Shown one piece after another: positions 23,437 to 26,400 of a DNA stretch of 64,000 nt. Made by a program: the position numbers. Each line of letters opens with the position of its first letter. Position 1 is the first letter of the stretch. The stretch lies in NCBI RefSeq assembly GCF_056712565.1, contig NZ_CM160072.1, one strand, 5' to 3'.

Positions 23437-26400
23437 TTAAACAAAAAAACGAAGCAAGCATACGCCTGATGGCGGTCCAAAAAAAAGAGTCATCTTGCCT
23501 AAGAGTATTGGCAGGATGGTGAGATTGAGCGACAATCGAGTTACACCGTCGCTTAAAGTGACGGCATAATAATAAAAAAATGAAATTCCTCTTTGACGGG
23601 CCAATAGCGATATTGGCCATTTTTTTAGCGCAACATCTGCGGCAAATTCCCTTCTCCATACAGGTGTAGTGCACCGACTGCGACCACATAGCGCCCCGGC
23701 GGCATGGCGCGTAATTTATCCCGCCAGGCGAGATTTCGCTGATGCATCAGCACATCGTACAGCGACTGACTGAACGTATTGGGCAGCGTTATTTCATTAT
23801 TTTGCGGCGGCGCATTCAACCACCAGCTCATCATTTGTTGCAGCAACCGTGCATTGGTGTGCCAGTGGGTCAGCGTGTCGTCCAGCAGCGCCAGTCCTTT
23901 GTCAGGGAGCTGGAGCAACATGGCAATCTGGTTTTCAGCCCCTTCCAGTTCAATCACGGGTTTATGTTGTTGCTTCGCCGCCTGCAATAGCTGGTAATCG
24001 ATACCGTATTCTGCCCGCAGCCCCAGTTTTTGTGCCTGCGTCGCCTGAAGAACCATCGCGATTTGCCACAACGGTTGGGTAGAAAAGAGCGACGGAGAAA
24101 TGCCCATCTCCTGGCTAATGTGCTGCAGGTTTTGGAGTTGCTCCTCGCTAATGCGCTCTTCCAGTGCCTCGCAGGCAGGCAAATTGGCAAAAGGCGTATC
24201 GCTGGTGGAAACATCCGCCTCGACGATCAGCGCATCGGCGTTTTTGAGCTTTTTGAGCAAACGGGTGGGCAGGGGAGCCATATCGTGGCTACCCATATGA
24301 ATACTGCCAATCAGATGAAAATGGCGATTGCCGGGAAGAGTGATATCGATAGCAGGCCAGGTGTAATGATTACCGCGCAGCGCGGCCCAAAGCGTTTTTA
24401 CCCGGTACAACAGATCCATACGACCTCCCTTTGTGAAATATCATGCTAGCGCGCGGGGAGGGATGGCGCAAATGGAGTTGATTGTTGCACTTGCGCACAG
24501 TGCTTGTGTGCATTACAATGATTGAATAATGGACAAGGAGATGAGAGAGGAATGGCTCAAAAGAAAAATATAAGGAGTTTTCGTGATGCCTGGTTGGCTG
24601 ATTTTTTTGTCCATTCAACGCCACATCGAAAGATCCCTGCTGAAATCCATACCACGTTATCACGAAAGTTGGACATCATTAATGCTGCCACTTCTCATTG
24701 GGATTTACGCTCCCCTCCGGGGAACCGATACGAAGAGTTATCCGGGAAATTACAGGAATACTCCTCCATTAGAGTGAATAAACAGTACCGACTGATTTTT
24801 AAATGGGTTAATGGCAAGGCCGAAGAATTGTTTTTAGACCCACACAACTACTAAAACATAGCTGTCGTATTGACGAGAAAGGTAAAACTATGAAACAGGC
24901 AACAAGAAAACCGACGACACCCGGAGATATTCTTCTCTATGAATATCTGGAACCGCTCGATTTGAAAATCAATGAGTTAGCAGAGTTGCTGCATGTTCAT
25001 CGTAATAGCGTCAGTGCACTGATCAATAACAATCGTAAACTCACCACTGAGATGGCATTCCGTCTGGCGAAAGTTTTTGATACCACAGTCGATTTTTGGC
25101 TAAACCTCCAGGCGGCAGTTGATCTTTGGGAAGTTGAAAACAACATGCGTACCCAGGAAGAATTGGGACGGATTGAAACAGTGGCTGAATATTTGGCACG
25201 CCGTGAAGAGCGTGCAAAAAAGGTCGCGTAGAATAATTTCCCTATAACGGATGCGCCACCCTAAAGCAGCGCATCCGCAATGATGTACTTATTCCTTCGG
25301 TTTAAACCGCAGCAAGCGGTTGGCGTTACTCACTACGGTGATCGACGAGAGCGCCATTGCCGCTCCGGCAACCACCGGGTTAAGCAGTGTTCCAGTGAAC
25401 GGCCACAAAATACCGGCGGCGACCGGAATACCAATGCTGTTGTAGATAAACGCACCGAGCAGGTTCTGCTTCATGTTGCGCAGCGTTGCGCGGGAAATTG
25501 CGAGCGCATCCGCAACACCCATCAGGCTATGGCGCATCAGGGTAATCGCCGCGGTTTCAATGGCAACATCACTGCCGCCCCCCATCGCAATACCGACATC
25601 CGCCTGAGCCAGCGCTGGCGCATCGTTAATGCCGTCGCCCACCATTGCTACCTGACGTCCTTCACTTTGCAGACGTTTGATCGCTTCGGCTTTACCGTCC
25701 GGCAGCACGCCGGCTATCACCTCATCAATCCCTGCTTCTTTAGCGATCGCATTGGCGGTGGTCGGGTTATCCCCGGTTAGCATCACCAGGCGATATCCCG
25801 CTTTATGCAGGCGTTGCAGCGCCGCCACGCTATCACTACGCAATGGATCGCGTACAGCCAGCAGGGCTACCGCTTTCCCGTCAACCGCCAGCAGCACAGG
25901 CGTTGCCCCTTGCGATGCCTGAGCAGTAATCTCCGCTTCGATAGCTTTGGTATCAACCTGTTGCTCATTTAACAACGCCTGATTACCCAGCAATAACGCA
26001 TGACCTTCAGCTTCACCGCTCACGCCCAGCCCGCGCAATGTGCGGAAACCGTTGACCTGCGGCAGCTGCATATCACCTGCTTTATCGAGGATCGCTCGTG
26101 CCAGCGGATGGCTGGAACCTTGCTCCAGCGCCGCCGCCAGACGCAATGCTTGCGCTTCATCAACATCAGCAAACGTTTTTACTGCGACAACCTGCGGTTT
26201 ACCTTCGGTCAGCGTCCCGGTTTTATCGAACACTACGGTGTCGAGCGTACTGGCGCGTTGCAGCGCGTCGGCGTCCCGTACCAGCACGCCAAACTCAGCC
26301 GCCCGCCCGACGCCCGAAATAATCGACATCGGCGTCGCCAGCCCCAGCGCACACGGACAGGCAATAATCAGCACCGTGGTGGCAATCACCAGGGTGTAGA

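Follow-up and report, generated by a model that had tools for sequence, protein, structure and literature searches.

The locus considered here lies within a 64,000-nucleotide (nt) stretch of DNA from contig NZ_CM160072.1 of RefSeq assembly GCF_056712565.1 (the window, below) and is, with a probability of roughly 0.9, the chromosomal type II toxin–antitoxin operon higB-1/ybaQ of Escherichia coli phylogroup B2/F, comprising the toxin HigB-1 and YbaQ, its antitoxin and repressor. The pair is already annotated and was published in 2020 (Rousset et al., bioRxiv 10.1101/2020.05.25.114553). A preliminary description of this DNA, unaware of both the annotation and the publication, had proposed a putative HigBA-type pair; it was correct, each element of its interpretation having stood up when examined, but not new. 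To the published account we add the operator in its full extent, together with evidence that it is conserved between genera, genome counts for the allele classes, the nature of the lesion in strain CFT073 and a relationship to the module of phage-plasmid D6. From our own computation, the assignment draws on protein families, the toxin fold, residue conservation, the joint conservation of the pair and its operator, purifying selection and strain distribution; from the literature, it draws on the conditional essentiality of ybaQ, the de-repression of higB-1 in strain S88, where the locus is identical, and the ClpXP degron of YbaQ.

The features on which the argument turns are as follows, in window coordinates:

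24487-24511, plus strand: predicted YbaQ operator GCAC-TTGC-GCAC-A-GTGC-TTGT-GTGC, a nested palindrome of 25 base pairs (bp) with four GCAC/GTGC half-sites, symmetric about 24499
24491-24519, plus strand: putative sigma-70 promoter, with -35 TTGCGC (24491-24496), a 17-nt spacer and -10 TACAAT (24514-24519)
24535-24540, plus strand: probable Shine–Dalgarno (SD) sequence of higB-1, AAGGAG, 11 nt before the ATG; read from the sequence
24552-24854, plus strand: higB-1, open reading frame (ORF) of the toxin of 100 amino acids (aa), with an ATG start and its stop codon at 24852-24854; read from the sequence
24602-24608, plus strand: T7 homopolymer in codons D17-F18-F19, the site of a T7→T6 frameshift that inactivates the toxin
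24855-24889, plus strand: intergenic spacer between higB-1 and ybaQ, 35 nt; read from the sequence
24879-24882, plus strand: SD sequence of ybaQ, AAGG, 7 nt before the ATG; read from the sequence
24890-25231, plus strand: ybaQ, encoding the 113-aa antitoxin and repressor, a HigA-family XRE protein with a helix–turn–helix (HTH)
25211-25228, plus strand: C-terminal RAKKVA of YbaQ, a ClpX tag (C-motif-2; PMC9775585)

RefSeq holds an identical toxin protein, WP_000057524.1, under the name 'type II toxin-antitoxin system RelE/ParE family toxin', and in E. coli ATCC 11775, to which the window region is 100% identical, the neighbouring gene is annotated as 'ybaQ, HigA family addiction module antitoxin'. 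Moreover, the ybaP-copA interval of S88 matches positions 24420-25288 base for base and encodes the same protein accessions; the S88 experiments of Rousset et al., who gave the toxin the name higB-1, therefore apply to this exact allele. In S88, knockdown of ybaQ by CRISPR interference was lethal and strongly de-repressed higB-1. Of the 18 E. coli strains in that study, 5 required ybaQ for growth, and the authors ascribe this to an intact higB-1 upstream of it in B2/F strains; the exception is CFT073, in which higB-1 is truncated and ybaQ is dispensable. It is on these published genetics, namely, essentiality in the 5 of 18 strains and its loss where the toxin is frameshifted, that the case for a harmful toxin neutralized by YbaQ rests. 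The locus is, in effect, a textbook-style example of a core gene whose essentiality depends on an accessory neighbour, a point already made in print.

The premature stop reported for CFT073 is accounted for by the T7→T6 frameshift, and the allele that carries it therefore provides a natural control, tying the essentiality of ybaQ to an intact toxin. The slip is accompanied by T24699C in a single allele common to CFT073, NCTC9022, M16807 and FDAARGOS_1267; among 40 genomes sampled from those with the toxin, approximately 5 have the gene as a 302-bp copy. Recurrent slippage as the origin of the frameshifted alleles is disfavoured, since the four that were examined share the linked single-nucleotide polymorphism and look like one inherited event.

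HigB-1 matches Pfam family PF05015 (HigB-like_toxin), which belongs to the RelE/ParE superfamily, from end to end: residues 9-98 align with positions 2-91 of the 91-position model (E = 9.4e-32, 109.8 bits), a result that places the 100-aa ORF far beyond chance. The same domain is carried by all 120 listed homologs. The C-terminal end ...SSIRVNKQYRLIFKWVNGKAEELFLDPHNY, from which the preliminary description had recognized a HigB/RelE-type toxin starting at ATG 24552, is present in the sequence, and the call itself is borne out by the profile match and by the predicted fold. In an AlphaFold2 model built with 27 homologs (mean predicted local distance difference test score 78), residues 1-10 are disordered, helices span residues 13-21 and 30-45, and strands span residues 70-74, 79-86 and 89-97, giving a predicted arrangement of N-terminal helices on an antiparallel β-sheet that is that of the RelE-type fold. 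When this model was compared with the PDB using Foldseek, the best 16 matches were without exception HigB of Proteus vulgaris or GraT of Pseudomonas putida; the HigB chains, among them the ribosome-bound 4YPB and 4W4G, scored TM values of 0.78-0.83 with root mean square deviations of ~2 Å. By sequence, the closest solved structure is that of GraT (PDB 6F8S, chain B; E = 3.4e-14).

Eight residues, namely, R38, D41, R74, N76, Y79, R80, H98 and Y100, are invariant in the 27 homologs (57-90% identity) and are all retained in HigB-1. They include a set of basic, histidine and tyrosine side-chains of the kind expected at an RNase site (R38, R74, R80, H98 and Y100), with a histidine close to the C-terminus. 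From the profile alignment, in which the Pfam model stops at residue 98, H98 would correspond to His92 of HigB and GraT, and by analogy with these relatives, HigB-1 is presumably a ribosome-dependent mRNase.

The ATG at 24552 coincides with the aligned start positions of the homologs, and AAGGAG-like sequences precede the toxin start in the homologous loci. The AAGGAG at 24535-24540 is better placed as an SD sequence than the GAGAGG at 24545-24550 that had been suggested previously, which lies only 1 nt from the ATG. An alternative start, TTG at 24522, falls 3 nt past the predicted -10 element and upstream of the expected transcription start at ~24526.

The companion protein, YbaQ, passes the NCBIfam HigA equivalog model TIGR02607 with 105.3 bits (cut-off 47.7; E = 1.1e-30), in agreement with its previous classification as an XRE-family HTH protein resembling HigA antitoxins. 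It has no amino-acid change with respect to K-12 YbaQ (WP_000806442.1), a protein already termed a solitary antitoxin (PMC2374986), and the crystal structure PDB 2EBY is of the same protein over residues 1-113; its next relatives in the PDB are HigA, GraA (E = 3e-10) and VapI. The RAKKVA tail is listed as a ClpXP C-motif-2 (PMC9775585), and in the literature this degron is widely employed as a degradation tag. A C-terminal [V/A/I/L]-A is retained in 40 of 43 close YbaQ homologs. Judging from the literature on the tag and the conserved tail, RAKKVA would make YbaQ protease-labile.

Upstream of higB-1, an inverted repeat, GCACT-N7-AGTGC (24487-24503), had been put forward as a possible autoregulatory operator. 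The repeat is present, but its extent was under-called: it pairs the outer-left with the inner-right half-site of the 25-bp palindrome, the general pattern of which is GCAC-N4-GCAC-N-GTGC-N4-GTGC (16 specified bases). Taken alone, the 5+5 repeat is not significant, and even for the 25-bp pattern, which occurs once in the window, ~0.6 chance occurrences per 64 kb are expected with up to three mismatches; the significance of the operator derives from its conservation across homologous loci. The pattern was scored in 44 loci that encode a close homolog of YbaQ (identity of 55% or more): in 42 it occurs with no more than two mismatches and no more than 170 nt upstream of the toxin, and in 33 it is perfect; none of the 430,300 control positions taken from these loci matches as well. 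An upstream profile of 44 distinct loci, anchored on the shorter repeat, gave the consensus aaatGCACTTGcGCACaGTGCatgaGTGCatTA..aT, in which TTG and TA...T are near-invariant and separated by a fixed distance. On this basis, we place the putative promoter at 24491-24519, where the operator covers the -35 element and most of the spacer, an overlap that would be expected of autoregulation. Rousset et al. likewise report a YbaQ binding motif in the higB-1 promoter. The toxin-less alleles (K-12-type, CU532-9 and KTa008) are without the operator, the closest match in each having 7 mismatches out of 16.

More distant homologs from marine gammaproteobacteria (loci L064, L068, L078 and L088, among others), with antitoxins ~40% identical to YbaQ, are without the enterobacterial 25-bp operator; GCAC-N9-GTGC palindromes are present in these loci nearer to the toxin gene, 19-32 nt upstream of its start codon. 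These palindromes suggest that the GCAC half-site arose earlier than the arrangement of four.

The pairing of the two genes is likewise conserved. Homologs at 55-80% identity are found throughout Enterobacterales and beyond. Representative genomes were scanned for homologous loci, and in 78 of the 80 obtained, the toxin gene is followed after 8-130 nt by one that resembles ybaQ; of the remaining two, L043 is unscorable, as it stops ~120 bp past the toxin. The toxin-first order, which the preliminary description had taken as characteristic of higBA, is thus both present here, with a 35-nt gap (ybaQ ATG at 24890), and conserved. None of the 80 loci, that of E. albertii included, adjoins ybaP or copA. 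The contexts are various: a P22-like prophage in Salmonella, yjdP-phn in Citrobacter, rlmC-artJ in Kosakonia, and ~90-kb plasmids in E. coli. From these unrelated genomic settings, the module is judged to be a mobile cassette. The paralogous module on ~90-kb plasmids (L096:3900-4712), present in 76 of 5,426 complete E. coli genomes and plasmid-borne without exception, matches the addiction module of phage-plasmid D6 (MF356679 67514-67813).

Of the same 5,426 genomes, 1,265 have the toxin gene, in each case as a single chromosomal copy, and 4,833 have ybaQ; ~3,568 genomes have ybaQ alone (the K-12 type) and ~593 have neither gene. This agrees with Rousset et al., in whose survey most phylogroups, that of K-12 among them, are without higB-1, and phylogroup D has lost both genes; indeed, the window locus (WP_000057524.1 and WP_000806442.1) is the one that they described, with nothing different in kind and the same distribution (B2/F strains carry the pair, K-12 and most phylogroups are without the toxin, and some strains have lost the two genes together). 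The previous suspicions that the toxin gene is strain-variable and that the ybaP-ybaQ interval, 470 bp here, is shorter in K-12 were both well founded, the interval being 137 bp in the K-12-like genome used for comparison of the alleles.

Where the window has the promoter and toxin, the K-12-type allele has a segment of 76 nt that looks unrelated. When it (L002:1602-1677) is compared with window positions 24481-24889, an identity of ~99% in ybaP and ybaQ falls abruptly to near-random in the 76 nt upstream of ybaQ, so that a simple, clean deletion does not account for the toxin-less allele. Semi-global alignment of the segment to the higB-1 promoter, assessed against dinucleotide shuffles, gave z = 2.0, with 43 of 1000 shuffles as good, and the promoter-plus-spacer and other alternatives gave z = 0.8 and 1.4; the similarity is marginal, and we claim no homology between the two. 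Between the K-12-like and window copies, ybaQ itself has five silent differences, one of them in the stop codon. Beyond ybaQ, the K-12-type interval up to copA (L002:2020-2334) has ~260 bp extra, with three tandem units resembling repetitive extragenic palindromes (CCGTAGGCCGGATAAGGCG...) that are missing from the window (25232-25288); the variation therefore extends to both sides of ybaQ. Both genes are missing from the CU532-9 allele, and in KTa008 (L004:3041-3468), ybaP and copA are separated by an unrelated, GC-rich and hairpin-rich filler of 428 bp, within which there is neither an annotated gene nor an Rfam match.

A divergent allele, with a toxin protein 90% identical to HigB-1, occupies the same site (ushA-ybaK-ybaP-higB-ybaQ-copA). 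In the housekeeping genes on either side of it, identity to the window is no more than 93-94%, and the insertion therefore predates the split of the two alleles, an age that, on this sequence comparison, agrees with the published view of the module as ancestral and then lost. The ratios of nonsynonymous to synonymous substitution rates (dN/dS) between the two alleles are 0.12 for higB-1, 0.06 for ybaQ and 0.06 for ybaP; the first of these indicates that the toxin is under purifying selection.

Taken together with what is known of related systems, these data allow a working mechanism to be proposed. A single promoter would drive both higB-1 and ybaQ, and XRE-HTH dimers of YbaQ would bind at 24487-24511, over the -35 element and most of the spacer, to repress transcription; by analogy with GraA, two dimers are probably bound. 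YbaQ would also bind HigB-1 and keep it off the ribosome by steric exclusion, as GraA does with GraT, whereas ClpXP would turn YbaQ over via its RAKKVA tag. A fall in the supply of YbaQ would then de-repress the operon, such that HigB-1 is made and freed, and by analogy, the free toxin would enter the ribosomal A site, cleave mRNA and arrest growth. The mRNase chemistry, the steric mode of neutralization and the two-dimer complex are modelled on GraTA and on HigBA of P. vulgaris.

GraTA of P. putida (PDB 6F8S and 6F8H; PMC6393540) is the nearest of these models. It is likewise toxin-first, with GraT ~40% identical to HigB-1 over the ordered core; the N-terminus of GraT is disordered, as predicted for residues 1-10 of HigB-1, and the GraTA operator, like that of YbaQ, combines a central palindrome with two distal half-sites. 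Two dimers of GraA bind the GraTA operator cooperatively, from opposite faces of the DNA (PMC6393540). GraT cleaves mRNA in a codon-dependent manner, and GraA blocks its binding to the ribosome (PMC6393540); GraT, in turn, acts as a de-repressor. The two systems differ in that the half-sites are TAAC/GTTA in GraTA but GCAC/GTGC here, that the distal contacts of GraA are non-specific whereas all four half-sites are strongly conserved here, and that GraT ends at His92, whereas the C-terminus of HigB-1 reads D-P-H-x-Y. The HigBA system of P. vulgaris plasmid Rts1 (PDB 4MCT, 4YPB, 4W4G and 9CHN) provides the best fold match, belongs to the same Pfam family and is also toxin-first, and its HigB is described as a ribosome-dependent A-site mRNase in a passage of PMC6393540 that cites the work; however, this HigB is just 25-27% identical to HigB-1, its operators and complex architecture differ, and it is plasmid-borne, whereas higB-1/ybaQ is at a fixed chromosomal site. 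HigBA of K-12 (ygjN/ygjM) shares the name, the toxin-first order and an HTH antitoxin, but is not close: the PDB sequence matches that HigB-1 gave at E ≤ 0.01 include no K-12 HigB chain. The K-12 toxin is classed in a Pfam family other than PF05015.

A number of observations weigh against the assignment of a functional toxin–antitoxin operon. Most E. coli have either no toxin gene or a broken one, and the toxin is hence dispensable. The 11-nt spacing of the higB-1 SD sequence is long, a consensus promoter scan made no call at the proposed promoter, and the -35 element TTGCGC matches the consensus at just three of six positions. The local C-terminal motif of HigB-1, D-P-H-x-Y, is not the D-Y-H of P. 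vulgaris HigB, so catalytic equivalence to the latter is an argument by analogy. In addition, relative to the 27 homologs, HigB-1 has W50 where the family has Arg or Lys, and F94 where >90% have Tyr. Trp50 is probably a derived change, since the frameshifted allele of the CFT073 lineage has R50 (T24699C). The searchable literature yielded no direct toxicity, RNA-cleavage or DNA-binding assay of the HigB-1/YbaQ pair.

We also note that W50 (codon 50, at 24699; both W50 and F94 are shared with S88) adjoins the positions of antitoxin-contact residues in GraT.

Three other interpretations have been considered. The first assigns the module a main role in anti-phage or anti-plasmid defence, by abortive infection or exclusion, rather than in the stress response or selfish persistence. 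We consider this unlikely: although homologous modules occur on mobile elements (the Salmonella P22-like prophage, and D6 and the related ~90-kb plasmids), and a passage of PMC11980606 links toxin–antitoxin modules of the same superfamily to defence, no PADLOC model is matched by HigB-1 or YbaQ, and the neighbouring ybaP and copA are housekeeping genes and do not constitute a defence island.

The second holds that the toxin here is a decaying, weakened remnant, that YbaQ is a general transcription factor and that the pair no longer works as an addiction or stress module. Complete E. coli genomes without the toxin make up 77% of the total, and in most of them YbaQ is nonetheless retained as an identical protein; the CFT073 lineage carries the toxin gene in a frameshifted form; W50 and F94 are found at conserved toxin positions; and the binding regions of YbaQ, obtained by chromatin immunoprecipitation with exonuclease digestion and used for motif search, come from the toxin-less K-12 (Gao et al. 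2018). Against this, ybaQ is essential where the toxin is intact, including in S88 with its identical allele, the toxin keeps every family-invariant residue and has evolved with a dN/dS of 0.12, and the operator is perfect; decay to a remnant therefore seems very unlikely. The third interpretation, that HigB-1 acts not as an RNase but as a gyrase poison of the ParE type, or in some other way, is barely credible: the RefSeq name 'RelE/ParE family' is generic, NCBIfam returned no above-threshold model for HigB-1 (only weak, sub-threshold RelE and YoeB matches) and there is a weak ParE_like Pfam match (E = 0.053), but the HigB-like Pfam match is stronger by 30 orders of magnitude, the top folds are those of HigB and GraT, with ParE-type toxins far down the Foldseek ranking (ParE2 at E > 0.1), and invariant Arg, His and Tyr side-chains such as those of HigB-1 are typical of toxins of the RNase branch.

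A working higB-1/ybaQ operon leaves the orphan copies of ybaQ, present in about two-thirds of E. coli, including K-12, to be considered. One suggestion, which we offer tentatively and regard as rather doubtful, is that orphan ybaQ may be an anti-addiction or immunity gene, directed at incoming HigB-1-type modules on phage-plasmids such as D6 and on prophages. In the module of D6 (MF356679) and the related ~90-kb plasmids, the toxin is 79-80% identical to HigB-1 (80% for that of D6 itself, which is annotated as an addiction-module toxin) and the antitoxin 75% identical to YbaQ, with near-identical HTH and N-terminal regions, and the 25-bp operator pattern is perfect; because of this, a resident YbaQ could repress an invading D6-type module and neutralize its toxin, and cross-talk between the two is plausible. 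The D6-type module differs from the window copy in its setting, the former being on a mobile replicon that it presumably stabilizes, and the latter in the chromosome among housekeeping genes. If the suggestion is correct, orphan YbaQ would affect the establishment and stable upkeep of such elements; the D6 link thereby suggests a testable reason for the presence, in most E. coli, of an orphan and perfectly conserved YbaQ after the loss of toxin and operator.

Three further features flank the operon:

23625-24419, minus strand: ybaP, the upstream neighbour
25248-25277, strand not assigned: stem-loop CGGAUGCGC-N12-GCGCAUCCG between the convergent ybaQ and copA (fold -16.3 kcal/mol, z = -2.4)
25289-27793, minus strand: copA, the downstream neighbour, convergent with ybaQ

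The stem-loop is a possible terminator common to ybaQ and copA, albeit one that is without a T-run and for which a terminator scan gave no call. Rfam produced no match inside 24420-25290; elsewhere in the window its matches are all ordinary, namely, the small RNA sroB between ybaK and ybaP (23543-23626), and the dnaX frameshift element, naRNA4 and STnc480 (8476-8540, 16463-16540 and 54819-54885).

Further upstream, between ushA and ybaK, there is a two-gene unit on the minus strand (21618-22918) that encodes, in this order, a DUF6896 protein of 266 aa and a hypothetical protein of 167 aa, with a 4-nt overlap between the genes; neither product matched an NCBIfam model. The unit is missing from the K-12-like, CU532-9, KTa008 and CFT073 loci, where ushA abuts ybaK, and is found in ATCC 11775 and S88.

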